Notes: generated from the sequence alone by a model not told the origin. A DNA stretch of 64,000 nt from Gemmatimonadales bacterium (GCA_036558125.1 DATBGE010000082.1:5781-69780); one strand, 5' to 3'. Shown: positions 6,187 through 56,541, numbered from the stretch's first letter. Made by a program: numbers and translations.

Positions 6187-6681
6187 GTGGGCCGATCCGC
6201 CGCGTACTGGGCCGCCAATCTCTATCCCGAATCCCGCCACGAACCCAAGCCTTCCGCCCCGTACCGGGACCTTCCCGGGCCGATCGGCGCGCGCTTTCGC
6301 AAGGTCAGGGAAGGGCTCCTGGCGCTTCAGGGCGTCTCCGAATCCGTCAAATTCATGGGTCCGAGCTGGCGCTGGGCCTGGGAGTTTGCGGCCGGGAGCC
6401 GAAAGCTTTGCTGGCTCCACGTCATGCAGAACGGAGTCGGAGGGACATTCACTCTGAGTGATGGTGAAGAGCGGAAGGCCCTCGCGATCTCCCGGCTCCC
6501 CTCTGCCATCAGCGACGCCATCCAGAGCGGTCACCGCACCGGCCCGCTTCGCTGGTGCAGCATCGAGATTACCGATCAGAAGTCAGCCGACGTCTTCGTC
6601 GGCTTTGCACGGCGCAAGTTGGCGTGGCTCACGGCCGAGACGCCTGCCGCCGTGCTGGCGCGGAGAACTCTGACCGGCTAG
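6187..6681 (+). CDS. Conserved hypothetical protein (DUF3788-like)
   Basis: 164-aa ORF with a GTG start and coding-like composition. The W-rich central block resembles DUF3788. That assignment is from memory only. Confidence 0.5.
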   Translation: MGRSAAYWAANLYPESRHEPKPSAPYRDLPGPIGARFRKVREGLLALQGVSESVKFMGPSWRWAWEFAAGSRKLCWLHVMQNGVGGTFTLSDGEERKALAISRLPSAISDAIQSGHRTGPLRWCSIEITDQKSADVFVGFARRKLAWLTAETPAAVLARRTLTG

Positions 6682-13019: not shown

Positions 13020-14380
13020 TGGCCAGCTCCGTCGTCCGGGAAACTCTCTCGATCCGCGCCCTGTCGGCGCGCTACAACCTGTTCGTCGGCTTGGGCGCGG
13101 TGCTGGCCGTGATCGGTCTCATCCTTCTCGCGCTCGCGCTCACTGGAGCACAGGCCGATCGCGCCTGGCATCTCTTTCACGTGAACTGGGTCTTCTTCAC
13201 CAGCCTCACCGGCGGCAGCATGGCCTTCGTGGCGGTGCAGAAGGTGACCAAGGCCAAGTGGTCCGGCCTGATGATCCGGTTCTCGGAAGCAGCCGCCTTC
13301 CTGTTCTTTCCGGTATCGCTGATTGGATTCCTGCTGATCTTCACGGTCGGCTACAGCCACATCTTCCCGGCGATGGAAGGGTTGGGGCACGCCAAAGAGA
13401 TCTGGCTGTCCCACAGCTTCATGTTCTGGCGGCTCTTTATCGGCCTCTGCCTGCTTTACTACCTGGGCTACCGGCTGATCAGAGCCGACATGATTCCGGA
13501 CATGTTTGAGACCAAGGCCCTGCTCACCGGCCGGCGCCGGACCATGTACGATCGCTGGACCGCCGGGTATGACGACTCGCCCGAGGCCAGAGCCCGAAAC
13601 GATCACACCATCTACACCCTCGCGCCCGCGTACGTGGTGGTCTACGCGCTCGTCTTCACGTGGGTGGCATTCGACATGGTGATGGGCCTGCAGCCCCACT
13701 GGTTCTCCAACCTGTTCGGCGGCTGGTTCTTCATGGGTGCGTTCCTGGGAGCCCATACCCTCCTCGCGCTCCTGATGCTCTACGGGCGGAAGGAGGTGGG
13801 TATCACCGCGTTCGTGTCCCCCAAGCAGCGGCACGACCTGGGCAAGCTCTGCTTCGGCTTCACCGTCTTCTGGGCCTACCTGATGTGGGCTCAGTTCCTG
13901 GTGATCTGGTATGGCAACCTTCCAGAGGAGACTGGATTCCTCTTTGCCCGACTCTGGGGTCCTTGGCGGCCGATCGGCAGCATCGTATTCCTCGGCATGT
14001 TCGTCATTCCCTTCTTCGGCCTGCTTGGAGTTCTGCCCAAGAAGGTGCCGTTTACCATGGCGCTCTTCACCGCGATCAGCCTGGTATCGCTCTGGCTGGA
14101 GCGGTATCTCGACGTCATGCCCTCGGTAACTCGCGAGCCGGGTCCCGTGTTCGGCCTTCCCGAGTTCGCCTCGACCGCGGCGTTCCTGGGACTCTTTCTG
14201 TTGTGCTACGGGATCTTCGCCCGCACCTTCCCGATGGTTTCTCCCCGGCTCGCCGAGATTACCCTCGATCGGGAGCGCGGGCATGTACTTCAGGAAGTCA
14301 CCGGCGAGTTCGAGCATGAAGAGGCGCCGGGCGATTACGTGGCCGCGGACGTGATCGAGCGGAGACACAAAGAGCGGTGA
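13019..14380 (+). CDS. actF: Alternative Complex III subunit ActF (second NrfD-like membrane subunit)
   Basis: ATG at 13019 overlaps the actE TAA (TAATG). Polytopic membrane protein paralogous to ActC. Confidence 0.85.
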   Translation: MASSVVRETLSIRALSARYNLFVGLGAVLAVIGLILLALALTGAQADRAWHLFHVNWVFFTSLTGGSMAFVAVQKVTKAKWSGLMIRFSEAAAFLFFPVSLIGFLLIFTVGYSHIFPAMEGLGHAKEIWLSHSFMFWRLFIGLCLLYYLGYRLIRADMIPDMFETKALLTGRRRTMYDRWTAGYDDSPEARARNDHTIYTLAPAYVVVYALVFTWVAFDMVMGLQPHWFSNLFGGWFFMGAFLGAHTLLALLMLYGRKEVGITAFVSPKQRHDLGKLCFGFTVFWAYLMWAQFLVIWYGNLPEETGFLFARLWGPWRPIGSIVFLGMFVIPFFGLLGVLPKKVPFTMALFTAISLVSLWLERYLDVMPSVTREPGPVFGLPEFASTAAFLGLFLLCYGIFARTFPMVSPRLAEITLDRERGHVLQEVTGEFEHEEAPGDYVAADVIERRHKER

Positions 14381-31908: not shown

Positions 31909-33483
31909 CTATGCGTGCGTTGGCTTGTGCAGGGTCCACCACTCCCGCGCCTGTTCCTGGCTCCAGGGGTGCCGAACCTCCAACTCCCCCAACCGAAGAG
32001 ACAACTCTCGTGCGGATTGGGGACGCTGCGCCGGGTCCTTGGCGAGACAAGCCAGCACGAGGTCATCGAGTGCGGATGGAATAGGGAGCTCGGTCCGGGC
32101 GGACGGGGGCACCGGCGGCGTTTGCGCGTGCTGCAGCAGAAGTCCCATCGCATTGTCGGCCGTGAAAACGTACTGCCCCGTCAACAGCCAGTAGGCGACA
32201 CAGCCGGTGGCATAGATGTCGGCGCGCCCGTCCAGCGGTTGTCCCATTGCCTGTTCGGGGGCCATGAAGGCGGGAGTGCCCTTGATGCCATTCTCCCGGG
32301 TGTGCATGGCGCTCGAGTCATCCGGGGTGTGAACCGCTCCCACAATTCCAAAGTCGAGGACCTTCACGAAGTCGTATTCCTCGCCATACTGGCAGACGAA
32401 GATGTTCGCCGGTTTGACGTCTCGATGTACCAGCCCGCTCGAGTGGGCTTCGGAAAGGGAGTGACAGACCTGGCGCAACAAAGGAATAGCCCGCTCGGGC
32501 GGGGTTGGCCCGAATCGTCGGAGCAAGGAGTCCGCGTCGAGCCCGTCGAGCAGTTCCATGACATAGTAGAAGGCGCCATCCGCGGCAATCCCGAAATCGA
32601 ACAGTTCGACGGTATGGGGAGAGCGGAGACTCGCGATGACCTGGGCTTCGCGTTCGAATCTCCGGACCGCCTCCTGCGATAACCCATTCCCGGATTTTCC
32701 CGCGACGGCGGGACGGATCAGCTTGATCGCAGCGGGACGGGCCAGCATGCGATGGCGGGCTCGCCAGACCTCGCCCATTCCTCCCTCGCCCAGCTTCTGC
32801 TCGAGGCGGTAACTCCCCAGCTCTCTGGCCTTCCGGACTTCAGTGCTGAGCTGGTAGACCACGCGGGCCCCGACATAGGCCATGGCCACGACGAGGATGT
32901 AGGGGAACACGAGCCCGAAGAAGAACTGGAGCGGGTTGATTCCGTATAGGGCACCGGACCCAATCACGATCGCAACGACGACCGGCACGGCACTGACCGA
33001 TGCAAGCGCCGTCAGCAAGGCGCGGCGGGGAGAGGTCGGCACGACAATGGTGAACAACACGACCCACACCGCGACCCACGAGAGTCCCAGGAAACCCTTG
33101 TGGGTGATGAGCCCTTCGGGGTCGCCGAACTCGGCTGCGGCGATGGCGTAGCTGCTGACGATCTCGAACACCAGTCCGAGGTTCATCGCGGTGCGAAGGG
33201 AGGTCCGCGAGTTCCCAATCACGACCGCGACCACGAGGGCCACTACGATCCCGATTACACTGGGCCCCCACTGGATGAAGGTGCTGAGGAAACGGGCTCG
33301 CTCGCTGGGAAGGAGGAGGGCGGGGAAAACACCGGCCAAGAAGAAGATGAACGCGTAGAGTAGCGCGAGCACCCGAAGACGGCCGGCAGACTGGAGGAGC
33401 AGGTCGACCGGAAGACCCGCGGTGGTTCCCGGAGCGGTCCGGTCATCCGGCTCGGGTCGGATGAGTGTGACATCCTCCTGCAT
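31909..33483 (-). CDS. Ser/Thr protein kinase with N-terminal multi-TM domain
   Basis: Hanks motifs GEGGMGEVW, AIK, HRDVKPANI, DFG and GTPAFMAPE lie in the C-terminal half. About six hydrophobic helices fill the first ~220 aa. Confidence 0.9.
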   Translation of the reverse strand: MQEDVTLIRPEPDDRTAPGTTAGLPVDLLLQSAGRLRVLALLYAFIFFLAGVFPALLLPSERARFLSTFIQWGPSVIGIVVALVVAVVIGNSRTSLRTAMNLGLVFEIVSSYAIAAAEFGDPEGLITHKGFLGLSWVAVWVVLFTIVVPTSPRRALLTALASVSAVPVVVAIVIGSGALYGINPLQFFFGLVFPYILVVAMAYVGARVVYQLSTEVRKARELGSYRLEQKLGEGGMGEVWRARHRMLARPAAIKLIRPAVAGKSGNGLSQEAVRRFEREAQVIASLRSPHTVELFDFGIAADGAFYYVMELLDGLDADSLLRRFGPTPPERAIPLLRQVCHSLSEAHSSGLVHRDVKPANIFVCQYGEEYDFVKVLDFGIVGAVHTPDDSSAMHTRENGIKGTPAFMAPEQAMGQPLDGRADIYATGCVAYWLLTGQYVFTADNAMGLLLQHAQTPPVPPSARTELPIPSALDDLVLACLAKDPAQRPQSARELSLRLGELEVRHPWSQEQAREWWTLHKPTHA

Positions 33484-38449: not shown

Positions 38450-39010
<561 letters not shown>

Positions 39011-39891: not shown

Positions 39892-40087
39892 CTGGCCTCC
39901 TGGGTTGGGCGCCCAGATGCGACAACGCCAGCCGGCGGAGGGTTGCGCGATGTGACGTGCCGCCGAACGACCCCATGCGGCGGTCCCTAGCCCCGTCCGA
40001 TACTCCACGACACCAGAAGTGCGTTCTCCGCAACCAGCTTCGCGTAGAGCGGGTAGGCCGTAGCTTGATTCAAGTGGCCTCCTTCGG

Positions 40088-40170
40088 AGCCAACGCCCCG
40101 CGCTTCACCTGCAGGCGACGAGCGTGCCAGCTCGCCGTCGTCCAACCTACTTGCGGAGAGGCGAATGGAT
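40088..40170 (+). repeat. Conserved intergenic repeat, copy R1
   Basis: AGCCAACGCCCCGCGCTTCACCTGCAGGCGACGAG, followed by an imperfect dyad (GGCGACGAGC / GCTCGCCGTCGTCC) and GAATGGATTGG. Confidence 0.8.
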
Positions 40171-40227
40171 TGGCGGCTCCGTCGGAGTGGGACCAACGGC
40201 CATGGCGCCCCAGCACAAGAGGATTTC

Positions 40228-41666: not shown

Positions 41667-42083
41667 CTACCCGTAGCGCCGCCTTGCCTCAGCGATCGAA
41701 CCGACGACGAGTTGCTCGAGCACCGACTTGTCGAGGTCGGCGAGTTGTTTGAAGTAGAGGCAGGACTTGCCCATCTTGTGCTTGCCAAGCTTGGCCAACA
41801 AGGCCTTCTGTCTGCCGGCTTCGGCGTCCAGATAGACGACCAGGTCGCGGCCACGGACAGCGAAGCCCGCCAGAGGAGCCTCCCCTGTATGTCCACTCTC
41901 GTAGGTGTACCGGTAGGAGCCATAACCGACGATGCTGGGTCCCCACATTCTTGGTGACTGCCGGGTGATCTGCTGAAACAGAACCATCAACTCCCGGCAG
42001 TCGGCGCGTTGCTGCGCGTTGGCTCTGGAGGCGATGTACTCCTCGACGCTGGCGCCGGTGAACTTGGTCTTGTTTTGGGCCAT
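41667..42083 (-). CDS. DUF1801 (YdhG-like) domain protein
   Basis: MAQNKTKFTGASVEEYI...GKSCLYFKQLADLD is typical of DUF1801. Confidence 0.8.
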   Translation of the reverse strand: MAQNKTKFTGASVEEYIASRANAQQRADCRELMVLFQQITRQSPRMWGPSIVGYGSYRYTYESGHTGEAPLAGFAVRGRDLVVYLDAEAGRQKALLAKLGKHKMGKSCLYFKQLADLDKSVLEQLVVGSIAEARRRYG

Positions 42084-42112
42084 ATCAGATAGTCCGTGAT
42101 TGCCGGGTCCCG

Positions 42113-42236
42113 GCGCCTAAGGCCCGCGCTCACCCCTGCGGGCGACGAGTGGAGGAGTCAACAACTGGATCGCTTCCTTGAACATATAGCGTCCGACTGC
42201 CCTCGTCGCCTCGCTCCTGGGCGTGAGGCTAAGGCA
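42113..42236 (+). repeat. Conserved intergenic repeat, copy R2 (with the clearest long imperfect dyad)
   Basis: GCGCCTAAGGCCCGCGCTCACCCCTGCGGGCGACGAG-TGGAG-GAGTCAACAACTGGAT. The distal arm CTCGTCGCC...GCGTGAGGCTAAGGC pairs back to the GGCGACGAG, CTCAC and GCCTAAG elements. Confidence 0.8.
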
Positions 42237-42357: not shown

Positions 42358-42759
42358 ATGCGTTTCATCGTCATGGGCATAATGAAGAAGGAGCCGGAAC
42401 CAGGCGTTCCGCCGAAGCCCGAAGCGTTCGCCGCGATGCAGAAGTACAACGAAGAGGCCGTGAAGGCGGGTGTCCTCCTCGCGGCCGAGGGTCTCGCGCC
42501 CCTCTCGAAGGGTGCGCGCGTGAAGTTCAGCGACGGCCAGCCCACCGTCATCGACGGTCCATTCACCGAGGCGAAAGAGCTCGTTGCGGGTTTCTCGATC
42601 ATTCAGGTGAAGTCGCTGGACGAAGCGATCGAGTGGGTGAAGCGCGCTCCAATAGTCGCTCCAAACGGCGAGGTCGAGATCCGCAAGCTGATGGATGTCG
42701 AGGATTTCGGTGAGGGGTTCACCCCGAACCAGGAAATCGCCAAAGTGAAATACAAGTGA
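42358..42759 (+). CDS. YciI-family protein
   Basis: The block VIDGPFTEAKELVAGFSIIQVKSLDEAIEWVKRAP is typical of the YCII/DGPF fold. Confidence 0.85.
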   Translation: MRFIVMGIMKKEPEPGVPPKPEAFAAMQKYNEEAVKAGVLLAAEGLAPLSKGARVKFSDGQPTVIDGPFTEAKELVAGFSIIQVKSLDEAIEWVKRAPIVAPNGEVEIRKLMDVEDFGEGFTPNQEIAKVKYK

Positions 42760-43934
42760 GTGGGCCCGTGCACAGGCCACTGCTGCGCGTTGCTCTCCTC
42801 GCCCTTTCGATTGCGGCGCCGAACGCCTTCGCGCAGACCACCACCGCCGCATCGCCATCGCCGGACTACGGGAACCCTTCAGTCTGGCTCTGTCGCCCCG
42901 ACCGGCTCGCGGCCTGCGACGTGGATCTTTCCACCACGGTGATCGGCCGAGACGGGCGCTCGACCGTCGAGCGCGCACGGCTGGATCCAAAGGCGCCGGT
43001 GGATTGTTTCTACGTCTATCCCTCGGTGTCGACGGATACGACGGATTTCAGTGATCTCGTACCCGACGCCGCCGAGCGCACCGTGGTACGACTGCAGCTG
43101 GCGCGGTTCGGCATACGGTGTCGGCTGTTCGCGCCAATGTACCGGCAAGTCACGCTCGCCGCACTAGGTCGTGCCAACGCCGCCGGCATTGCGTCGCCCA
43201 ACTTCCTCGGTATCGGATACGAGGACGTCCGCGCCGCGTGGCACTACTACCTCGCGCACGACAATGGCAACCGTGGAGTCGTGCTGATCGGACATTCCCA
43301 GGGCACCAGCATTCTGACCGAGTTGATCCGCCGCGAGATCGAGGGCACGCCGGTGCAGTCACGCATCGTCTCCGCGTTGCTCATCGGCGCGCCGGGTGGC
43401 ATCCTCGTTCCCCGCGGGAAGGACGTGGGCGGAACGTTCGCGCACATGCCGCTCTGTCGCGCGACTACGCAGACCGGCTGCGTCGTAGCGTATTCATCAT
43501 TTCGCGCCAGTGCACTCCCCGCGGCGAGGACGCCTTTCGGGCCGTCCGACTCGACGGTAGTCGCGGCGTGCACCAATCCCGCAGCGCTTGGCGGCGGTGA
43601 GGCCGCCCTCAACGGTTATTTCGACGCGAGCGGAGGGACGGCCCTGGCGATGGGGCCCACCGAACCGTGGACCGCTGGCGGACAACCGATTGCAACGCCC
43701 ATGGTGCGTGTCGTAGATCTGTTGAAGGGGCGGTGCGCGACCAACGCCTTCGCCACCTATCTCGAGGTAACTGTACAGCGAGAGCCTGGCAGCCCGGCGA
43801 GCCGAGACATTCAAGGGGACTTGGCGGAGGGGCTTGGCCTGCATCTCGTCGATCTGGAAGTGGCCATGGGCAATCTGGTCGATCTCGTCGGCCAACAAAG
43901 CAGGAGCTATCTCGCCAGTACCCGCCGACCCTAA
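42756..43934 (+). CDS. DUF3089-like secreted alpha/beta hydrolase
   Basis: GTGA overlap with the yciI-like stop, a signal peptide, and a nucleophile elbow LIGHSQGT. Confidence 0.75.
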   Translation: MSGPVHRPLLRVALLALSIAAPNAFAQTTTAASPSPDYGNPSVWLCRPDRLAACDVDLSTTVIGRDGRSTVERARLDPKAPVDCFYVYPSVSTDTTDFSDLVPDAAERTVVRLQLARFGIRCRLFAPMYRQVTLAALGRANAAGIASPNFLGIGYEDVRAAWHYYLAHDNGNRGVVLIGHSQGTSILTELIRREIEGTPVQSRIVSALLIGAPGGILVPRGKDVGGTFAHMPLCRATTQTGCVVAYSSFRASALPAARTPFGPSDSTVVAACTNPAALGGGEAALNGYFDASGGTALAMGPTEPWTAGGQPIATPMVRVVDLLKGRCATNAFATYLEVTVQREPGSPASRDIQGDLAEGLGLHLVDLEVAMGNLVDLVGQQSRSYLASTRRP

Positions 43935-44005
43935 CAGATACAGCAATCGAGTGCTGTTCGGTGTTGGAGCCGAGCAGCCAGGACATCGAACGTGTGGAGA
44001 CTCAA

Positions 44006-44590
44006 ATGAGAAAGATCAGGATCGCGGAGCACATCTCGCTGGACGGCGTGATCCAGCCGGGCGGACCGAACGAAAACAGCGAATACTCGCATGGCGGGTG
44101 GACGGCGCCGTATCGAACTCCGGAAGGGGCCGCCGCCGCCGCTGAGGCATACGGCAGTGGCTTCGATCTGCTGCTTGGCCGCCGCACCTACGATCTCTGG
44201 TCCAGTTTCTGGCCGAAGATGAAGGGCGGTCCGTTCGCGGACAATCTGAACGCCGCGACCAAGTATGTCGCAACTCACAGGCCGGATGGCCTCGAATGGG
44301 GTCCGGTCGGCGACCTGGGCGCGGATGTCATGGAGGGTGTTCGCCGCCTCAAGTCACAGGACGGCCCTGACCTGGTGGTCTGTGGAAGTGCGTCGCTGAC
44401 GTCCGTGCTGCTCGAGAAGGGATTGGTCGACGAGGTTGTGCTGGCGGTGTATCCCCTCTTGCTGGGCCGAGGTAAACGCTGCTTTCCGGACGGGGCTGAC
44501 GCGCCGGAATTCGCTCTCGTCAGCACGAAGTCCACGCCGACAGGCGTGCTGCTCAACACTTATCGACACGTTGGATCGAAGCGAACCTAG
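44006..44590 (+). CDS. Dihydrofolate-reductase-family protein (RibD C-terminal domain), second paralog
   Basis: MRKIRIAEHISLDGV...LLLGRRTYD...VLAVYPLLLGRG. Start at the ATG at 44006, inside the longer tracked ORF. Confidence 0.8.
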   Translation: MRKIRIAEHISLDGVIQPGGPNENSEYSHGGWTAPYRTPEGAAAAAEAYGSGFDLLLGRRTYDLWSSFWPKMKGGPFADNLNAATKYVATHRPDGLEWGPVGDLGADVMEGVRRLKSQDGPDLVVCGSASLTSVLLEKGLVDEVVLAVYPLLLGRGKRCFPDGADAPEFALVSTKSTPTGVLLNTYRHVGSKRT

Positions 44591-44644
44591 TCTTCCAGGT
44601 CGTTTTGTGAAACCGATCGGGCCGCGCCCTGGTGATGGTGCGCT

Positions 44645-44700
44645 GCCCAACGCCCCGCGCTTCACCTGCGGGGGATGAGTGTTCGAGTCAACGGCTGGAT
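44645..44700 (+). repeat. Conserved intergenic repeat, copy R3
   Basis: GCCCAACGCCCCGCGCTTCACCTGCGGGGGATGAG-TGTTC-GAGTCAACGGCTGGAT. It begins with a perfect RYYYAAC heptamer (GCCCAAC). Confidence 0.8.
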
Positions 44701-44980
44701 GGCACTCGCGGCATCGTCGGGAACAGCTGGCACCTGGCTTCCTGCCCTATCGAGGGAATCGGGTAACCCGACGTCTTTATCGTCACGAATGGCGTCCCCT
44801 CGGCGTTACCTGCTTCCTGCGTCGTGAGAAAGTGGCCACACGACATATCCAACGCGCACATCACGAAATCGGCCAGGATCTGGTGGGCGGTGGGTATGAA
44901 TGTCAGCAGCGGCTGATGTACGCAGGAACTGTACGACAGTGGGACTCACGGGCTGAGCGTCAAGCTAGCTGCGTGCAGGC

Positions 44981-46147: not shown

Positions 46148-46178
46148 CGTGGATCTTGCCCTAACATTCTTACCTGCC

Positions 46179-46276
46179 GCCGAATGCCGCGCGCTTCACC
46201 TGCGGGCGACGAGGGAACGAGTCAACAACGGATGGATTCCCTTAAGACTACAGCGCCCGACGGCGCGGCGTTGGGT
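46179..46276 (+). repeat. Conserved intergenic repeat, copy R4
   Basis: CGCCGAATGCCGCGCGCTTCACCTGCGGGCGACGAG-GGAAC-GAGTCAACAACGGATGG, ending near a GTTGGGT heptamer (46270-46276) that matches the GTTRRRY form. Confidence 0.8.
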
Positions 46277-46297
46277 ACGCCTCCTGGCGGTCAGTGG

Positions 46298-47378: not shown

Positions 47379-50300
47379 TTACGCGTTGTTCAAGAACAGC
47401 CGCCCCGACGCAAACGAATACCGCGCCACCGCCGGTGCCCAGCGCTGCATCTCGGCGCAGGTGAACGTATCCTCGAGCTCGATCCTGAGGACGCGAAGAT
47501 CCTCGAACAGGGCCCGCCACTGGGCCCGGTCGCCCTCCTCCGTGTCCTCTTCCAGCTCGTGGGAAATCGGGGGCCGGTCGGTGCGGAATACCTTGGTCGA
47601 CCGGCGGGCGCCCGGCGGGTGGGCCAGCTCGGGCTCCGTTGTCGGAAAGACTTGCTTCTCGATATTGTCGATGAATTTCCACCAATCGAGTTTCGCAGCG
47701 GCGGAAGGCTCCAACCCCTCCACCAGCTGACGGATGATCTCGGTCGTCTGCGCCGGATAGCCGGTCAGCATGGCCAGCAGCAGCAACACCAGCCGGTGAT
47801 CCTCCAGGTTGGGATTGATCAGCCGGTCGCGATCGGCCCCCCGCACGGTCGCGCGGAGCAGGCGATACACGTTCACATACCGCTTGGTCGCCCGCGGAGA
47901 AGGGAGCAGGACGTACAGCCGTTTCATGTGGGTGCGCTCCCAGTCCTCCAGGCGCAGGTGTCCTCGCGCTTTGGCGACGGCCTGCTTCGCCTCCTTTGCT
48001 TCAGTCGTCATCTGGCTCGGCTTCTTCTCTCCAGGGGCCTCCTGGGCCGGGAGCTTCGCGGGCTCCCCGGTAGCCGTCCCGGTCTCGGTGGCGCTCACCG
48101 TCCCCTTCTGTCCATCCTGGGCTGGGGGAGGTAATGGAAGCGTCTCCCCGTGGGGAGGCGGCTGAGCCCCGGCTTTCGAGAGATCGTCGATCAGGTTGTC
48201 ATACCCCTTCCGGTCCATCCGGCGTAGCGCAAAGGGGATCTGGAAGATCTTCTCCAGATAGCTGAGGGGCGTGGATTGCCAGTGGTTGCGCTCCTCCTCG
48301 GTGGTCTCTTCCTCCTTCATGCTGTTGAACGCGGCGAGTTGCTGCCGAAGCGAGTGCAGCAGCCACCGAGAATCCACACCTACGACGACCACGAAGAGGG
48401 GAAACGCCAGCAGCAGGTGCACGGCCTGGAGGACCTGAAAGACCTTTCTCTCCGGGCAGCGGTCCAGGTCGTCGATGTACAGCACGATGCGGTTGATCGG
48501 GGGGAAGTTCATCGCCCGCTCGCCCTTGGCTTCGTCCGGCTTGTGATTCTCGACCAGTCCCATGAGCCGGGTCAGCTCCTCGAAATCCTGCCGGGCCCGG
48601 GCGATCACCCCGAAGTACTTCCGGTACTCGTCGCCCTTGTTCCGGCTCTGGATGAAGTCGCTGAGTCGCCGGTCTGGCATCAGCTTGTCAAGCTTTTCGT
48701 TCAGGTCGGCCACCTCGTTCGTTACGGCTTCCACCTCCTTGCGTTTCGCCACCGCAAGGTCTTCCGCTTCCTTTCGCTCCTGCTCCGCCTCGGCCACGCG
48801 CTGCTGTCGGGCAGCGTCGATCTTGGTCTTCAGGCTGTCCCGGGCATCGGCGACGACCTTGGCCGCGGACCTGGCCTTGGCGAGCACCGGGGCGATCCTG
48901 GCAACGATCGCGACGAGCGCACTGGTTACCGCGGCGATGTACGGACCGACCACCAGGAGCTTCGTGAGGATCCAGCTGCCGGCAACCAACCCGATCACCA
49001 GCACCACGACCGAGATGACCCAGAACCGGGCGCTGCCTTTGGCGGTGAGCGAGCTGATGACGCCCTTGCCGAAGGAGGCGAGCTCCAGCGTCTCCTTGAT
49101 CTGATCGTCCAGGTTCCCCGCCGCCTCACTGAGAGGGTCCAGGCCGAGTTGCTTTCGCCCTTGGTCGAGCTGTTCCTTGATCCCGGGCTGGCTGCTGACG
49201 AACCTGACGATCTCACTCGCTACCGCCTTGGTGCCCAGGCTCTTTTCGATCTCCGCATCGGTGCGGTTCTGGGTTTCATCGACCACGCGCTGCCGCTCGG
49301 CCAGCTCGCCCTCGGCCGCATCGGCGGCCTGCTTGGCTTCGGCCAGCTTGTTCTCGGCGACGGTCTTTTGAGCCAGGAGCAGGGTGCGCTGCTCCTGAGT
49401 TTCAGAAATGCCGCGTTTCCGGACTTCCTCGTCGGTCAGGCTCTGGGCCAGGCCATCAAAGATTTGCGCTCCGAGAGTGGCCCAGAGACTCTTGTCGATG
49501 TAGTGCCAGGCATTGAACCAGAGCTGCACGATGTGAGGACAGAACGGCGAGCTGTCGTTGCCGCGGGCCTCGTCACGCAGGGCATTGATCCGTTTTTCCA
49601 TCTCCTGCATGAAGAAGCTCTTCCCGCTGCCCCAGTCGCCGAACAGCCCGATCGAGAGTGGCGGCTTGACTTCCCGCGCAGCGACCAGCGCGCTCAGCGC
49701 GTCGACCTCGTCGTCGATGCTGAGCAGGTCCTTCCCGCCGGCCACGTCATTGCTGCAGCCGGCGATCATGCCCTCGTCCACCTCGGGGATCGTCCGGTCG
49801 CCGAGGTCGATTTCCTCCTTCCGAATCCCCCGGTCGAGCAGCGCCTTGATGACATGGCAGTGCTCGATGGAGAGAGCGCCGTAGAGCAGGTGCCGGCTCT
49901 GGATCTGCACCGACTTCTTCTCATCGGCGATCGCTTGCGCGGCCTCGATCGCGATCTGGGCGTGACCGGACATGCCGGGCAACTCGGTGAGCTCGGTGGG
50001 CGTGTAGCTGCCCTGCCGGGGCAGCGCGGCCTCAACCGACTCCCCCAACACCGTCCGCAGTTCGTCCTCGTTATCGATCCCGGCCTCCTTGAACAATTTT
50101 TCGGCCGGGCCATCCTGTTTCAGAAACAGCCCCATGATGAGCTGTTCCATATGGACCCGGTCGCTGGGAGTGCTCTTCATCCCGTCGGCCACGCCAAGCG
50201 CGCCGCGTGAAGAGGGGCTCAGGCGGCGGAAGAAGGTGACCGGATCGAACGGTCGTTCGGATCCGCTGGTGCGGGGCGCGGCGGCCTTGGACTGCTGGAC

Positions 50301-50576
50301 CGCATTCGGAATGTTTTCGTTGGTCGGATTTCCGGCATTGCGGTCCGGTTGGTCGGCTGACCTGGCGAGGGCGTCCAACGTGGCCGCATCTACCCGGCCC
50401 GTGACCTCCAGTCCCCGCTGTTCCTGAAAGCGTCGTACCGATTGTTCGGTGGCGGCTCCGAACAAACCATCCACCGTGACCTTCATGCCGACCGTTTGGA
50501 GGAGCTCCTGAATCTTGCGGACTTCCGGTCCCTGATCGCCTCGGCCTGCGTCGCGTGCTGAACTCGGCTGCTGCAT
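47379..50576 (-). CDS. KAP-family P-loop NTPase with N-terminal peptidoglycan-binding-like and Clp_N-like domains
   Basis: Walker A LFGDWGSGKSF and Walker B VLYIDDLDRC are separated by an insert with two long hydrophobic helices (FWVISVVVLVIGLVAGSWILTKLLVVGPYIAAVTSALVAIVARIAPVL), which is the KAP hallmark. The N-terminus GPEVRKIQELLQTVGMKVTVDGLFGAATEQSVRRFQ resembles a PG_binding_1 repeat. Residues ~170-290 resemble Clp_N repeats. Confidence 0.85.
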   Translation of the reverse strand: MQQPSSARDAGRGDQGPEVRKIQELLQTVGMKVTVDGLFGAATEQSVRRFQEQRGLEVTGRVDAATLDALARSADQPDRNAGNPTNENIPNAVQQSKAAAPRTSGSERPFDPVTFFRRLSPSSRGALGVADGMKSTPSDRVHMEQLIMGLFLKQDGPAEKLFKEAGIDNEDELRTVLGESVEAALPRQGSYTPTELTELPGMSGHAQIAIEAAQAIADEKKSVQIQSRHLLYGALSIEHCHVIKALLDRGIRKEEIDLGDRTIPEVDEGMIAGCSNDVAGGKDLLSIDDEVDALSALVAAREVKPPLSIGLFGDWGSGKSFFMQEMEKRINALRDEARGNDSSPFCPHIVQLWFNAWHYIDKSLWATLGAQIFDGLAQSLTDEEVRKRGISETQEQRTLLLAQKTVAENKLAEAKQAADAAEGELAERQRVVDETQNRTDAEIEKSLGTKAVASEIVRFVSSQPGIKEQLDQGRKQLGLDPLSEAAGNLDDQIKETLELASFGKGVISSLTAKGSARFWVISVVVLVIGLVAGSWILTKLLVVGPYIAAVTSALVAIVARIAPVLAKARSAAKVVADARDSLKTKIDAARQQRVAEAEQERKEAEDLAVAKRKEVEAVTNEVADLNEKLDKLMPDRRLSDFIQSRNKGDEYRKYFGVIARARQDFEELTRLMGLVENHKPDEAKGERAMNFPPINRIVLYIDDLDRCPERKVFQVLQAVHLLLAFPLFVVVVGVDSRWLLHSLRQQLAAFNSMKEEETTEEERNHWQSTPLSYLEKIFQIPFALRRMDRKGYDNLIDDLSKAGAQPPPHGETLPLPPPAQDGQKGTVSATETGTATGEPAKLPAQEAPGEKKPSQMTTEAKEAKQAVAKARGHLRLEDWERTHMKRLYVLLPSPRATKRYVNVYRLLRATVRGADRDRLINPNLEDHRLVLLLLAMLTGYPAQTTEIIRQLVEGLEPSAAAKLDWWKFIDNIEKQVFPTTEPELAHPPGARRSTKVFRTDRPPISHELEEDTEEGDRAQWRALFEDLRVLRIELEDTFTCAEMQRWAPAVARYSFASGRLFLNNA

Positions 50577-51297
50577 AACGCCTCTGTCACGTTCCTTAGT
50601 TGATCACGACAAATTCCTTTCCTGTTTATCTCTGGGATCGAGTCTGGATACCCTGGTGACCCCGCTGCGCACGGAGGCGATCGCGCAGTTCGGGATAGAG
50701 AGGACTGAAGACCCGCCCCAACCCGCGTATGCCGCAAATGACTGCGAGCACTGGTCCCGCCCGGAACCCGACACTGCTCCCGCCCATCATGTTGGTCTGT
50801 GAGAATTGAATCGCGTGCGTGCACAATATGCCGCGTGCAACACGCGAGCACCATGTAGATGAAGATCTAGATCCAAGCAGACGAACCTCCGTCATCCTGC
50901 GAACCGGATCAATATTCCAACTCCTCGTCCGTCAGTATCATCGAATGGCGTGCCAATATTATCGATGAACTGTCGTGGGTTCGCGGCCCCGGCCGCGAGT
51001 CCCCAGCAGCTCCTGACCCGCTATCTTGCAACAATTCGACACGGGACGGCGAGGTGGATCCCCAGCTAAGTTGCTTTGCGCTGGGTTTGCTTTCGGAGCC
51101 GCCATAGTCGGAGCCATCGGCACCCATGGCTTCGCCGCTGCCTGGGGAAGAACTCGCCGGCGGCCCCAGCTCCTTCTCCGACAATTCGGAGCTGTACCCG
51201 ACAGGCCAATTCTCTGCAGCCACCGGCTGGCTTGGACGTCGGGGCAGCGCGCTGGTGAGGAGTGTGGCCCAGGACTTTCTTCCAAACGGCACGACGG

Positions 51298-52749
51298 ATG
51301 AAATCAAGCTTTCGACGGTTAGTCCAGACATTGCGGGGGGAAGAAGCCCTCACCCGTCCACCGCGGCTCGCCGACGAGAGTCGTTGGTACACCGAGCACA
51401 CAGCCCTCCTCATCAGCACCCTCAAGTGGGCCTTCCTTGGTGCGGCGGCCGGCTTGTGCGTTGGTTTCGGGACCCGGGGTTTCCTCTGGTCACTGAGCGC
51501 ATCGAGCAGTCTGGTCCATCGCCTTACCGGTCCGTTGCCCGGCTTCTTGCCGCTCCCGCTGGCTCTGCCACTCTGCGTCTGGCTCATTCGCCGCTTTGCC
51601 CCCGACGCTCAGGGTCATGGAACCGAGGCGGTCATCGCCGCAGTGCATCAGCGATCCGGCCGGATCGACTGGCTCATCGCCCCGGTAAAGCTCGGTGCCA
51701 CCGTCCTCACGCTCGCCTTCGGCGGTTCGGTTGGCAAGGAGGGTCCGGCCGCGCAGATCGGCGCCGCTCTAACGAGCCTCTTCGCCGACATTTTCCGCCT
51801 GAGCGATGAAGACCGTCGTCGCCTCGTGATCTGCGGGATCAGTGCGGGGTTTGCCGCGGTGTTCGGCACCCCGATCTCCGGCGCGCTGTTCGGCATCGAG
51901 GTCCTATACCTCGGGCGTATCGACTATACGGTCATCTTCCCCGCTATGGTGGCCGGCATCGTCGGGCATTTGGCGTGTGGTGTCCAACCTCCGTTTCCAG
52001 TACTCACCGAGCCTTTCGCTGGTCTCGGTCAAGTATCGACCATTGCGATATCGCTGGGCTCGGGGGCAGTGTTTGGCCTGGTCGCGCTCCTCCTCATCGA
52101 ATTCATGAGGGGGCTTGAGAAGGCGCTTCGCCGGTTTGCCGACCGTCCCTACCTCGTTGCAGGATGTGGCGGGGTCGTCCTGGTGGCATTCTACGCTCTG
52201 GTGGGAGATCGCTATGCGGGCCTGGGCACAGAGACCATCGCCGGGGTCTTATCCGGCACGACGACGGTGGTCTGGGCGGCATTCCTCTGGAAGATCATTG
52301 CGACCTCGGTGACGCTCGAGACCGGCGGCAGCGGGGGCATCGTGACCCCCATCTTTTTCATCGGAGCCACCAGCGGCGCGGCGATGGCCCACCTCATTGG
52401 TCTCCCCCAGGGCGTGCTCGCCGCCTTTGGCTTCGTCGCCGTTCTGGCAGCGGCGGCCAATACCCCGATTGCGGCAGCCGTCATGGCCATTGAACTGCTC
52501 CCCGCGACCACCGGCGTGTACGCCGCACTGGCTGCGGCCACGGCGTTCCTGATGGTCGGCCATCGAAGTGTCTATGCCAGCCAGAAGATTGGGTTCTCCA
52601 AGTCCGCTGCGCTCGAAATGGAGCTGGGCGGCGCAATCGGGGATCTGGACTTGGCCACCCTCCGCATTCGAAAGGGCAGTCTCACGGAGCGCTTCGGCCA
52701 GCTGGGCCGATCCAGCACCGCGAAGAACGACCCGCCCAAGGATCAGTAG
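51298..52749 (+). CDS. ClC-family voltage-gated chloride channel/antiporter
   Basis: Selectivity motifs GSVGKEGP and GTPISGALFGIEVL in a polytopic protein. The start is taken at ATG 51298. Confidence 0.85.
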   Translation: MKSSFRRLVQTLRGEEALTRPPRLADESRWYTEHTALLISTLKWAFLGAAAGLCVGFGTRGFLWSLSASSSLVHRLTGPLPGFLPLPLALPLCVWLIRRFAPDAQGHGTEAVIAAVHQRSGRIDWLIAPVKLGATVLTLAFGGSVGKEGPAAQIGAALTSLFADIFRLSDEDRRRLVICGISAGFAAVFGTPISGALFGIEVLYLGRIDYTVIFPAMVAGIVGHLACGVQPPFPVLTEPFAGLGQVSTIAISLGSGAVFGLVALLLIEFMRGLEKALRRFADRPYLVAGCGGVVLVAFYALVGDRYAGLGTETIAGVLSGTTTVVWAAFLWKIIATSVTLETGGSGGIVTPIFFIGATSGAAMAHLIGLPQGVLAAFGFVAVLAAAANTPIAAAVMAIELLPATTGVYAALAAATAFLMVGHRSVYASQKIGFSKSAALEMELGGAIGDLDLATLRIRKGSLTERFGQLGRSSTAKNDPPKDQ

Positions 52750-56426: not shown

Positions 56427-56499
56427 GGGGCGGTAGCTCAGCTGGGAGAGCACCTGGTTTGCAACCAGGGGGTCGCCGGTTCGATCCCGGTCCGCTCCA
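56427..56499 (+). tRNA. tRNA-Ala (anticodon TGC)
   Basis: Cloverleaf read by hand: acceptor GGGGCGG/CCGCTCC with the G3:U70 alanine identity pair, anticodon loop TTTGCAA, and T-loop GGTTCGATCC. No encoded CCA. Confidence 0.9.
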
Positions 56500-56541
56500 C
56501 TTCCCTATAACCCATTCCGATTCAAGCTCGCCGGATCCCTG

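Follow-up and report, generated by a model that had tools for sequence, protein, structure and literature searches.

What does a peptidoglycan-binding domain do on the cytoplasmic side of the membrane, joined to an ATPase? The question is raised by a reverse-strand gene in a 64,000-nucleotide stretch of DNA from a Gemmatimonadales bacterium (the whole stretch is called the window here), whose product had been predicted to fuse such a domain to Clp-type repeats and a KAP P-loop NTPase.

Coding status, domain order and topology

The gene is real and intact, and encodes a 1065-residue membrane-anchored KAP-type ATPase. Its main features are as follows.

47379..50576, reverse strand: complete gene (ORF of 1065 aa, codon-position GC, Pfam, dN/dS)
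49617..49640, reverse strand: Walker A motif GDWGSGKS, aa 313-320, invariant in 87 homologs
48456..48479, reverse strand: Walker B motif YIDDLDRC, aa 700-707, with invariant D702, D703, D705 and R706
48627..49415, reverse strand: helical/coiled-coil insertion from Walker A to Walker B, aa 388-650, long helices in both AlphaFold2 models
48879..49025, reverse strand: predicted membrane hairpin, TM1 aa 518-538 and TM2 aa 546-566, with a 7-residue loop (hydropathy, charges)
47382..48005, reverse strand: conserved helical C-terminal domain, aa 858-1065, with invariant P894, R895, R899, N902, Y904 and R905

GC content at the three codon positions was 0.67/0.42/0.83, which is clearly coding. The start is the earliest possible start codon downstream of an in-frame stop, so that an N-terminal extension is impossible. 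Purifying selection acts on the gene: dN/dS was 0.21 for the whole gene and 0.03-0.07 for the NTPase core (both relative to a 90% ortholog), 0.13 for the C-terminal helical domain, 0.33 for the PG_binding_1 domain and 0.46 for the linker that follows it. The domain order is PG_binding_1, Ser/Pro linker, two Clp_N repeats, KAP NTPase with a coiled-coil and two-TM insertion, and helical C-terminal domain; ORF, Pfam, family profile and AlphaFold2 agree with the 1065-residue architecture of the original prediction.

The KAP_NTPase model of Pfam (PF07693) scored 80.2 bits (cut-off 20) in two stretches that flank the insertion. Walker A and Walker B (VLYIDDLD, aa 698-705) are both intact and invariant in 87 homologs. 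They are split, as anticipated, by a coiled coil and two predicted TM helices (motifs at aa 313-320 and 700-707, TM segments within aa 518-566). TM helices within the NTPase domain are a feature of many prokaryotic KAP members (Aravind et al. 2004, as cited in 10.1101/2022.08.21.504612), and the window protein has its predicted helices in this place, between Walker A and Walker B. Lys and Arg residues flank the outer sides of both hydrophobic helices, which are kept in 87/87 and 80/87 family members, respectively; AlphaFold2 modelled the hairpin at low confidence (pLDDT 50-70).

The P-loop core is thus split by a coiled-coil stalk that ends in a two-helix hairpin, so that everything on either side of this insertion (N-terminal modules, the two NTPase halves, helical C-terminal domain) lies in the cytoplasm. 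No signal peptide or N-terminal TM segment was found, the first 60 residues having no hydrophobic stretch (Kyte-Doolittle maximum 0.95), in keeping with what had been claimed. With the hairpin topology and the impossibility of an N-terminal extension, every soluble part, the peptidoglycan-binding domain included, must be cytoplasmic; the earlier placement of this domain on the ATPase side therefore holds. The domain has no export signal and lies on the Walker A side, away from peptidoglycan.

The N-terminal modules and the protein family

Three features precede the NTPase core.

50367..50534, reverse strand: PG_binding_1 domain, aa 15-70, cytoplasmic, endolysin-type (Pfam, PHROGs)
50253..50351, reverse strand: Ser/Pro/Ala-rich linker, aa 76-108, pLDDT <50, boundary of module swapping in the family
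49791..50252, reverse strand: double Clp_N repeat, aa 109-262 (family profile, AlphaFold2, Foldseek)

The PG_binding_1 domain scored 61.2 bits in Pfam (cut-off 23) over the full model (1-57/57), and its DG-h-h-G-x-x-T motif is present as DGLFGAAT (aa 36-43). It matched PHROGs endolysin families (E=1e-12); phage genomes were matched by no other part of the protein, the identity to endolysins being 39-44%. Judged from its sequence, the domain is of the phage-endolysin (lysin) type, which had been missed before. PG_binding_1 carriers found so far in the family number six: the window protein and its 89% ortholog, the near-identical homologs P0097 and P0104, P0133, and P0182. This version is rare but recurrent, family members having gained the domain repeatedly.

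Two explanations centre on this domain. It could be a cytosolic sensor of peptidoglycan fragments (anhydro-muropeptides or UDP-MurNAc-peptides, raised by wall damage) that switches the NTPase on, by a logic like that of NOD1/NOD2. The domain is canonical, has kept DGxhGxxT under purifying selection and is unavoidably cytoplasmic, and other family members, likewise without a signal peptide, repeatedly carry related wall-binding modules (SH3_3, PG_binding_1) in this slot. However, the peptidoglycan moiety bound by PG_binding_1 is poorly defined, and the domain doubles as a protein-protein module, for example in MMP pro-domains; we consider such a sensor rather improbable. Alternatively, the domain would be an integrated phage-derived bait for a lysis-cassette protein or an anti-defence factor, like the decoys of plant NLRs, and the NTPase would fire late. 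The PG_binding_1 domain of P0097/P0104 is 73-86% identical (P0097: 76-86%) to the N-terminal domains of proteins of ~290 aa, which are themselves homologous over their full length to annotated phage endolysins from 882 phage records, and matches of the window domain to phage genomes are confined to endolysin and transglycosylase genes. The window domain itself is nevertheless no more than 39-44% identical to any endolysin domain and so does not indicate a recent capture here; in addition, we know of no documented homotypic PG_binding_1 interaction, and late sensing would have to come before lysis. A bait is accordingly an unlikely explanation.

The Clp_N-like repeats are supported, although the single sequence stayed below the Pfam cut-off (11.1 bits versus 20.7). 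First, a profile built from 87 family members matched the N-domains of ClpC in PDB over both repeats (E=1e-7) and essentially nothing else, and homolog P0133 scored 25.9 bits for Clp_N. Second, aa 110-260 were modelled with pLDDT >90 and superposed in Foldseek on ClpC/ClpC1 N-domains with a target-normalised TM of 0.70-0.76 (probability 1.00); with ClpT N-domains included, TM was 0.65-0.76 (probability 1.00), and the predicted fold is a double four-helix repeat. Family profile and predicted structure thus support the Clp_N assignment that had been made, despite its sub-threshold score. The resemblance to the N-domains of ClpC/ClpB-type Hsp100 proteins extends to their position, a double Clp_N fold right before a P-loop NTPase with a coiled-coil insertion. 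Unlike Hsp100 proteins, the NTPase here is KAP and not AAA+, and there is neither a second ATPase ring nor a ClpP-binding loop. With regard to ClpC-like binding of adaptors or phospho-arginine, only one trait is conserved: repeat 1 (HMEQL) retains the Glu of the 'TEH' motif of ClpC, which repeat 2 (SRHLL) has replaced.

Homologs align only from about aa 104-116 onwards, and the linker is therefore the boundary at which N-terminal modules are swapped. The family comprises ~3,300 clusters at 50% identity (3,328 at E<=1e-30), and at least 538 of its loci were found in species-representative genomes, spread over many phyla. Among the best 120 homologs, the N-terminal modules were Clp_N (58), TIR (18), Trypsin_2 (10), HEAT (6), PG_binding_1 (4), phosphoesterase (3), SH3_3 (2) and TPR (2), with single occurrences of CHAT, AbiJ-like, WD40, LRR, LTD, peptidase C1 and cyclophilin domains. 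By these comparisons, the family consists of stand-alone proteins in which the core (Clp_N being present or absent) is conserved across thousands of homologs and the N-terminal module is hypervariable (phospholipase included). Clp_N-KAP is the common architecture of a very large family, so far unstudied, in which only the PG_binding_1 front end is rare; the fusion is not unique, as the original prediction had supposed. That TIR, protease and lipase domains can take each other's place at the front end points to a role in anti-phage immunity.

The family is patchily distributed and has no conserved synteny. No conserved neighbour or partner gene was found in 80 genomic loci or in nine inspected contexts, as expected of the stand-alone gene that had been described. 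Several homologs lie amid housekeeping genes (beside OGDH, between rpoC and rpsL, beside the bio operon); close orthologs are flanked by integron attC sites (below).

The housekeeping surroundings bear on a housekeeping or stress function, namely that of a membrane-tethered Clp_N NTPase that would act on proteins along the inner membrane face, remodelling or recruiting them (for example wall-synthesis or quality-control clients), and would have no part in immunity. Clp_N repeats are the substrate or adaptor docks of Clp/Hsp100 chaperones, the neighbours are stress, detoxification and housekeeping genes, and PADLOC gave no system match. Such a role is difficult to reconcile with the patchy distribution and the lack of synteny or operon partner, with differing contexts and attC flanking at 90-98% identity, and with the swapping of TIR, CHAT, trypsin and phospholipase modules, unexpected in a housekeeping factor; we regard it as doubtful.

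Integron cassettes beside the gene

The gene lies at the edge of what had been called an accessory island. The position is correct, and the island is an integron cassette array, which had not been recognized. Four co-oriented attC sites were found in the window between 40.1 and 46.3 kb.

46177..46282, reverse strand: attC site, 81.2 bits in the covariance model (E=6e-16), the nearest to the gene, 1.1 kb downstream and co-oriented with it
44643..44733, reverse strand: attC site with a degenerate left arm and R' box GTTGGGC, 27.4 bits (E=4e-4)
42114..42209, reverse strand: attC site, 60.2 bits (E=2e-11)
40086..40176, reverse strand: attC remnant with only the right arm conserved, 10.8 bits (E=1.7), 19-mer core with one mismatch

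The sites have R'' (RYYYAAC) and R' (GTTRRRY) boxes, an imperfect inverted repeat and extrahelical bases. Their consensus is GCCTAAC...GTTAGGC, with two extra bases (T, G) in the left arm relative to the right; some degeneration is seen in the window copies. Matches were found in at least 120 metagenome contigs, in arrays of up to 12 sites, and of 28 short cassettes, 22 were filled by their longest, co-oriented ORF. A crude motif screen of the window and loci, which include short contigs, detected no integron integrase or tyrosine recombinase; an array without integrase fits a CALIN-type cluster.

Also missed by the original prediction was the presence of attC sites on the flanks of the gene in close orthologs. 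In the L010 ortholog, a 98.8-bit attC lies 140 nt upstream of the gene and a degenerate one 127 nt downstream; in the L001 ortholog, a 27.9-bit attC with GTTAGGC follows the gene. The covariance model found no attC at either end of the window copy, whose own 3' site is absent. Similarity to the 90% orthologs stops 50-300 nt upstream and ~20 nt downstream of the gene, which occurs at >=90% (90-98%) identity in three unrelated genomic contexts, two with flanking attC and the third being the window.

That integron cassettes serve as reservoirs of defence systems is known (10.1101/2024.07.02.601686). The array resembles the cassettes of sedentary chromosomal integrons and CALINs that encode anti-phage systems (10.1101/2024.07.02.601686) in its attC boxes with two extrahelical bases, in its co-oriented arrangement with one ORF per cassette, and in the attC bracketing of the gene in orthologs. 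It differs from them by the lack of a detected integrase, the unusually large cassette (~3.6 kb), the loss of the 3' attC in the window copy, and a Gemmatimonadales host instead of Vibrio or Xanthomonas. As part of the joint reading given below, and with the same moderate confidence, the gene is probably a mobile integron-type cassette of this Gemmatimonadales lineage.

The region upstream of the gene was described as a long, lower-GC, non-coding gap of ~330 nt.

50577..50908, reverse strand: upstream non-coding region, GC 0.572 versus ~0.63-0.64 in the window, with two conserved blocks

Its length and GC content were as described, but in the adjoining ORF 50909-51331, GC differs little between codon positions (0.56/0.60/0.65) and Pfam gave no match; the true non-coding distance to the divergent CLC channel gene is therefore ~690 nt. 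Two blocks are shared with the contig of the L001 ortholog: 50730-50877, with a palindrome (GATCTAGATC) and an inverted repeat (GCGTGTTGCACGC), and the final ~45 nt, which carry the ribosome-binding site AGAGG. No Rfam match and no sigma-70 consensus promoter were found in this region. The gene is neighboured by a DinB-family gene and the CLC channel gene, the latter lying with others beyond the array. Neighbouring cassette genes are of detoxification or stress type without PADLOC matches, and no known defence or mobile-element gene was present within 10 kb in the window.

Large chromosomal integrons carry addiction modules, and the gene combines an integron-cassette association with an apparently promoter-like upstream block of its own. 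It might thus be a selfish or stabilizing cassette, or an inter-bacterial conflict factor, in which the toxicity of a membrane-active NTPase stabilizes the array or hits competitors and not phages. What speaks against this is that neither an antitoxin-like partner nor a secretion signal nor a neighbouring secretion system was seen; we hold it to be very improbable.

Known defence systems and a proposed mode of action

KAP NTPases act in phage defence, as documented for PifA, QatA and four Walker B-dependent KAP fusions (PMC13552941, PMC13279940, PMC13001434); the fusions reported as anti-phage in 2026 are EF_KAP and three gut-metagenome KAP fusions (PMC13552941). The window protein shares with PifA of the F plasmid, QatA of QatABCD and the EF_KAP group an above-threshold KAP_NTPase core with Walker A and B, with EF_KAP a membrane segment inside the NTPase domain, and with the tested fusions the joining of NTPase and variable regions in one polypeptide. 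In contrast to the tested KAP proteins, it has a ~380-residue coiled-coil stalk, a Clp_N double repeat and an N-terminal variable module, none of which is described there.

The defence-type reading, already proposed in the original prediction, remains the best available, KAP fusions being anti-phage (PMC13552941). On balance we lean towards a self-contained membrane-anchored KAP NTPase that constitutes a single-gene anti-phage (conflict) system on a mobile integron-type cassette. We infer that it would combine sensor and effector functions. Several observations speak against this reading: housekeeping-sited homologs, the lack of a defence gene within 10 kb of the window gene, the sub-threshold PADLOC and NCBIfam matches, the integrase that was not found, the window copy without its own 3' attC, and the hairpin pLDDT of 50-70.

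In the resting state, the anti-phage NTPase would be an inactive membrane-tethered monomer or oligomer. A trigger produced by infection would be bound by its cytoplasmic sensor surfaces, for which the Clp_N repeats, the C-terminal helical domain and the endolysin-type peptidoglycan-binding domain are candidates; the last may recognize peptidoglycan-derived molecules arriving in the cytoplasm (anhydro-muropeptides, UDP-MurNAc-peptide), or else part of the phage lysis machinery. Binding would alter the nucleotide state and oligomerization of the NTPase, and the change would pass via the coiled-coil stalk to the membrane hairpin. The hairpin would then impair the membrane (by ion loss, depolarization or drain of ATP, effects described with PifA and Tmn), stopping phage production. 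No enzymatic effector was found in the window protein, where the hairpin would be the sole effector, its membrane disruption being assumed by analogy only. In relatives, the N-terminal slot holds an enzymatic effector instead (TIR, trypsin-like protease, CHAT, phospholipase-C-like); swapping of N-terminal modules is typical of NTPase-based immune proteins.

Assignment to a defence system by classifier was not achieved: PADLOC returned no system match, and PADLOC and NCBIfam matches were partial and sub-threshold only. QatA membership was rejected (55.1 bits versus an NCBIfam cut-off of 600, no QatBCD neighbours), as was full-length similarity to PifA (PADLOC PifA E=2.5e-4, aa 291-419 only). 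The Tmn class, to which the protein had been tentatively linked, proved to be a different family: Tmn is now described as a YobI-family NTPase, phylogenetically distinct from KAP and without recognizable accessory domains (PMC13001434). Membership was rejected, as there was no PADLOC Tmn match (the presence of the Tmn model in the PADLOC copy used being unconfirmed) and no YobI-type Pfam match at E<=1. The likeness to Tmn is one of design only: two TM helices between Walker A and B with the other parts cytoplasmic, a long helical C-terminus, and a stand-alone gene without conserved operon. The window protein differs from Tmn in its P-loop family, in its PG_binding_1 and Clp_N domains and in its much longer stalk. 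By analogy, a Tmn-like mode of action is plausible for it, with NTP turnover coupled to an effect on the membrane or on ions once a phage protein has been sensed.

The best structural match of the NTPase core was RdrA of RADAR, a weak one (E 0.014-0.05, TM ~0.15). RdrA is likewise a defence ATPase, of the ring-forming kind; in contrast to the window protein, it lacks a membrane insertion and acts together with the RdrB deaminase.

Domain order and membrane topology of the KAP protein

The KAP gene (47379..50576, minus strand) encodes 1065 aa. Its reading frame begins at the first start codon past an in-frame stop, so that an N-terminal extension is impossible, and its codon-position GC content (0.67/0.42/0.83) is a strong coding signature. 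Pfam matched PG_binding_1 at aa 15-70 (61.2 bits, cut-off 23) and KAP_NTPase in two stretches (80.2 bits, cut-off 20), in the order of the original prediction. Both Walker motifs are intact and do not vary in the family: GDWGSGKS (Walker A) at aa 313-320 and YIDDLDRC (Walker B) at aa 700-707. The segment that separates the motifs contains long helices and also a hydrophobic pair (aa 518-538 and 546-566), whose two helices are joined by a 7-residue loop, flanked on their outer sides by Lys/Arg, and kept in 87/87 and 80/87 homologs respectively. PADLOC matches to LeoBC, LeoB and LmuB (aa 373-674) fall in this coiled-coil insertion and were treated as compositional, not as homology.

The Clp_N repeats that had also been proposed missed the Pfam cut-off when the single sequence was used (11.1 bits against 20.7). 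A profile built from 87 family members and compared with the PDB matched the N-domains of ClpC, ClpB and ClpA in both repeats, with E-values down to 1e-7, and essentially nothing else. In the AlphaFold2 model, aa 110-260 have a pLDDT above 90, and the region superposes on the N-domains of ClpC and ClpC1 with a target-normalised TM of 0.70-0.76. Profile, model and superposition together indicate that the Clp_N assignment is correct in spite of the sub-cut-off single-sequence score.

No N-terminal hydrophobic segment was found in the protein, and the helix pair is inside the P-loop domain. The two halves of this domain have to come together on the side of the ATP; everything soluble in the protein, peptidoglycan-binding domain included, is therefore cytoplasmic. 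The oddity pointed out in the original prediction, a peptidoglycan-binding module on the same side as the ATPase, is thus real. Comparison of the window gene with a 90% identical ortholog gave an overall dN/dS of 0.21, and all domains are maintained.

dN/dS of the window KAP gene against its 90% identical ortholog, by region
Two NTPase halves: 0.03-0.07
C-terminal domain: 0.13
Clp_N: 0.26
PG_binding_1: 0.33
Linkers: 0.43-0.46

A conserved NTPase with interchangeable heads

A word-indexed search returned 255 relatives of the window protein, and when 1.84 billion representatives were searched exhaustively with HMMER (query aa 105-1065), 5,428 clusters matched at E<=1e-10, 3,328 of them at E<=1e-30. 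Species-representative genomes contain at least 538 family loci, and members occur in Gemmatimonadota, Acidobacteriota, Myxococcota, Actinomycetota, Planctomycetota, Bacteroidota, Proteobacteria and other phyla. NTPase, stalk, hairpin and C-terminal domain are conserved from about aa 265 on; a large subset also keeps Clp_N, the alignment there starting at about aa 105. N-terminal of this conserved part the family is hypervariable. Domains were counted in the 120 best clusters of relatives, and their N-terminal placement was checked on individual sequences.

Domains among the 120 best clusters of relatives
Clp_N: 58
TIR: 18
Trypsin_2: 10
HEAT: 6
PG_binding_1: 4
Phosphoesterase: 3
SH3_3: 2
TPR: 2
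CHAT, AbiJ-like, WD40, LRR, LTD, peptidase C1, cyclophilin: 1 each

The closest relatives (44-49% identity) carry a trypsin-like head in place of PG_binding_1. NTPase-based conflict systems are built in this way, from a conserved NTPase engine and plug-in heads, known immune effectors among them. Across 80 loci there was no conserved partner gene, the largest neighbour cluster being a generic kinase (7/80), and the nine gene contexts inspected were all different, in agreement with the stand-alone status that had been proposed.

Two neighbourhoods may be described. Beside the trypsin-headed member P0004 (L002/L003, 11568-16177) lie a 626-aa protein without Pfam match and a 904-aa fusion of Amidase_2 (PGRP-type muramoyl-alanine amidase) with a caspase-like Peptidase_C14, which is another peptidoglycan-recognition/death-protease pairing. 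An SH3_3-headed member (L009, 10001-13993) occupies a small insertion between rpoC and rpsL-rpsG-fusA, a normally conserved stretch; the insertion also carries a DNA ligase and a methyltransferase.

PG_binding_1 was present in 6 of the 232 family members examined, and its fusion to KAP is therefore rare but recurrent.

Family members carrying PG_binding_1
Window protein and its 89% ortholog
P0097 and P0104: TIR-PGB-KAP
P0133: PGB-x-Clp_N-KAP
P0182

Used alone as a homolog query, aa 1-110 gave no matches, a domain of this length being too short for that database's E-values. Proteins of about 290 aa with GH19, muramidase or M15 peptidase catalytic domains carry at their extreme N-terminus a domain that shares 73-86% identity with the PG-binding domain of P0097 and P0104. 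For one such protein, P0264, homology to annotated endolysins in 882 phage records extends over the full length. The 73-86% identity suggests that an immune-like NTPase recently took up a phage lysin domain to give P0097/P0104 (TIR-PG_binding_1-KAP; L007, 10001-14074). Genes for vWA proteins and for a GT4-conflict glycosyltransferase occur near this locus.

When the window protein was compared with phage genomes, matches were confined to aa 12-101 and fell in endolysin and transglycosylase genes of phiKZ-like, Erwinia and Serratia phages (39-44% identity); the protein also matched PHROGs endolysin families (E=1e-12). On these matches its head is classed, by sequence, as an endolysin-type wall-binding domain. 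In the window lineage the head is too old for direct capture to be demonstrable.

Integron cassettes and mobility of the KAP gene

Comparison of the window with ortholog contigs exposed a repeat at about 40.1, 42.1, 44.7 and 46.2 kb. On the KAP gene strand it reads GCCTAAC-CAGCGCTTGCACCTGTCGGGCG...CGCCCGCAGGTGAAGCGCGGGC-GTTAGGC, is about 105 nt long, and has arms that are complementary save for two extra (extrahelical) bases. A shared promoter, operator or REP element was considered first, copies of the repeat being 34-82 nt upstream of co-oriented genes (three of the four window sites precede the next co-oriented ORF at this distance). This reading was dropped because of the extrahelical bases, the arrays found in metagenomes, and the ends of the repeat, which by sequence are the R'' (RYYYAAC) and R' (GTTRRRY) boxes of integron attC sites. 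A scan with the 18-nt core of the attC site found at least 120 metagenome contigs, mostly from rhizosphere and soil, many of which contain co-oriented arrays with a spacing of 430-1750 nt. A covariance model revealed arrays with as many as 12 sites, and the longest ORF was co-oriented and filled the cassette in 22 of 28 short cassettes. The attC hairpin received no covariation support, because the attC family is too uniform. In the window the model placed four sites, all on the KAP gene strand:

46177-46282, minus strand, attC site, 81 bits
44643-44733, minus strand, attC site, 27 bits
42114-42209, minus strand, attC site, 60 bits
40086-40176, minus strand, attC remnant

The accessory island at whose edge the gene had been placed is thus an integron cassette array, just downstream of the KAP gene. 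Its genes are of the detoxification/stress type (DinB family, epoxide hydrolase, RibD_C, DUF3089, YCII, DUF1801, glyoxalase-like and SnoaL-like), and none of them had a PADLOC match. Two crude regex screens for tyrosine-recombinase box II found no integron integrase in the window or in any retrieved locus, which fits a cluster of the CALIN type; in locus L100 the gap between arrays contains ArsR and SRPBCC genes, not intI. The attC family carries the idea of integron cassettes as defence biobanks over to soil Gemmatimonadales, and the covariance model is a simple sequence handle for mining more cassettes in rhizosphere metagenomes.

It was also observed that two RibD_C-domain paralogs (38450-39010 and 43991-44590) lie in and beside the cluster on opposite strands, and that at 42358-44590 the plus strand carries three genes (YCII, DUF3089, RibD_C) whose orientation is opposite to that of the attC sites. 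A single tRNA-Ala(TGC) gene (56427-56500) is located 6 kb from the KAP gene, with no integrase or other mobile-element gene seen near it.

The KAP genes of contigs L001 and L010 are 90% identical to the window gene and 98% identical to each other, in unrelated surroundings. Between the window and these contigs, homology extends to about 20 nt beyond the end of the gene and to 50-300 nt upstream of its start codon. In L010, a Gemmatimonadales MAG, a 98.8-bit attC site lies 140 nt upstream of the KAP start codon and a degenerate one 127 nt after the stop codon (sites at 9756-9861 and 13340-13444), next to a bioB-bioA-bioD operon. In L001 the gene is within an attC array (1-82, 4086-4191, 4589-4696 and 6469-6570) with YdjM cassettes around it. 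Homology between L001 and L010 stops at the R' box. The covariance model placed no attC site at either end of the window copy. The attC flanks in the unrelated surroundings of L010 and L001 indicate that a unit of about 3.6 kb has recently moved in the manner of a cassette. An attC-plus-DUF1801 cassette is common to the window (41768-42197) and L001 (1-428; 75% identity); in L001 it adjoins the KAP gene on the upstream side, but in the window it lies 5 kb downstream of that gene, a displacement that looks like cassette shuffling.

An ortholog of the window Ser/Thr kinase gene (31909-33483) is directly beside the KAP homolog in L002/L003 (L002 5523-7187, about 69% nucleotide identity), and in L008 (1-3325) a kinase and a CLC channel are within 8 kb of another KAP homolog. 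This proximity may be a remnant of ancestral synteny, interrupted in the window by a 14-kb cassette region.

The lower-GC region noticed upstream of the KAP gene (50577-50908) has a GC content of 0.572. The next ORF, 50909-51331 (minus strand, 140 aa), has flat codon-position GC and no Pfam match and is probably not a gene, so the non-coding gap extends over about 690 nt, up to the divergent CLC channel gene. The first ~100 codons of the latter look weakly coding (51262-51570, plus strand), and the divergent intergenic region may be at least 690 nt long. No Rfam family matched upstream of the KAP gene; SNORD86, the single match at E<=1, was a chance match within the coding region, and tRNA-Ala elsewhere was the one match at gathering level. 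A promoter scan, of limited value for the phylum Gemmatimonadota, found no sigma-70 consensus. Two upstream blocks are conserved with L001. The first, 50730-50877 (about 79% identity in otherwise diverged surroundings, absent from L010), holds a perfect palindrome, GATCTAGATC, and a short inverted repeat, GCGTGTTGCACGC; the second, the last ~45 nt before the gene, includes an AGAGG ribosome-binding site. The two blocks would be the KAP gene's own promoter or operator and its 5' UTR, and block 50730-50877 may be an operator or promoter travelling with the gene.

Relation to known defence systems and possible function

Like Tmn, the window protein has two transmembrane helices inside the P-loop domain, a helical C-terminal region and a stand-alone gene; unlike Tmn, it belongs to another family. 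Tmn is now described as a decameric NTPase of the YobI family, separate from KAP, which responds to phage RIIB by Mg2+ export and plasmolysis (PMC13001434). Tmn membership, which had been raised in the original prediction, is rejected on this ground and by the lack of Pfam or PADLOC support; an earlier preprint, in which Tmn was called a KAP NTPase (10.1101/2022.08.21.504612), explains the attribution. Architecture, topology, stand-alone status and island edge stand, and the Tmn attribution falls. Matches to QatA, PifA and PDC-S20 were partial and below any membership threshold, and membership of QatA or PifA was ruled out on score and context. PifA excludes T7. In QatABCD, the oligomeric QatA serves as an accessory ATPase (PMC13279940). 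[quoted passage not shown] Our literature search found no paper describing the Clp_N-KAP subfamily or the PG_binding_1-KAP fusion; there is a single mention of Clp_N repeats in fusion with other components of conflict systems (PMC7159879). The subfamily is very large, phylogenetically broad and unstudied, and the window gene represents it cleanly.

Judging by its architecture, by the pattern in the family, by its mobility and by analogy, we infer that the KAP gene most likely constitutes a single-gene, mobile defence against phages, with a membrane-anchored KAP NTPase that would be gated by cytoplasmic sensor domains; we favour this reading with moderate confidence. With a conserved membrane-anchored engine and interchangeable heads, function lends itself to direct tests in which heads are exchanged or the Walker motifs, Clp_N and the hairpin are mutated. 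The sharp question is what a peptidoglycan-binding domain kept in the cytoplasm reads inside the cell. A far more speculative joint proposal, which we consider unlikely, is that an immune NTPase senses through its endolysin-derived domain, either cytosolic muropeptides or wall precursors, as a prokaryotic counterpart of NOD1/NOD2, or phage lysis machinery, as an integrated decoy, and that the Clp_N-gated KAP NTPase and the coiled-coil stalk couple this detection to a hairpin that disrupts the membrane. In that case the whole Clp_N-KAP family (~3,300 clusters) would form a major, unrecognised class of single-gene defence systems with plug-in effector or sensor heads, spread partly as integron cassettes, and a head reading muropeptides or phage lysis proteins would be a new sensing principle for bacterial immunity.

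The profile search of the PDB found no solved KAP structure by sequence. Fold matches of the NTPase core were weak, with no close solved relative, the best being RdrA of RADAR, followed by AAA+ proteins. The best viral match was a giant-virus KAP protein.
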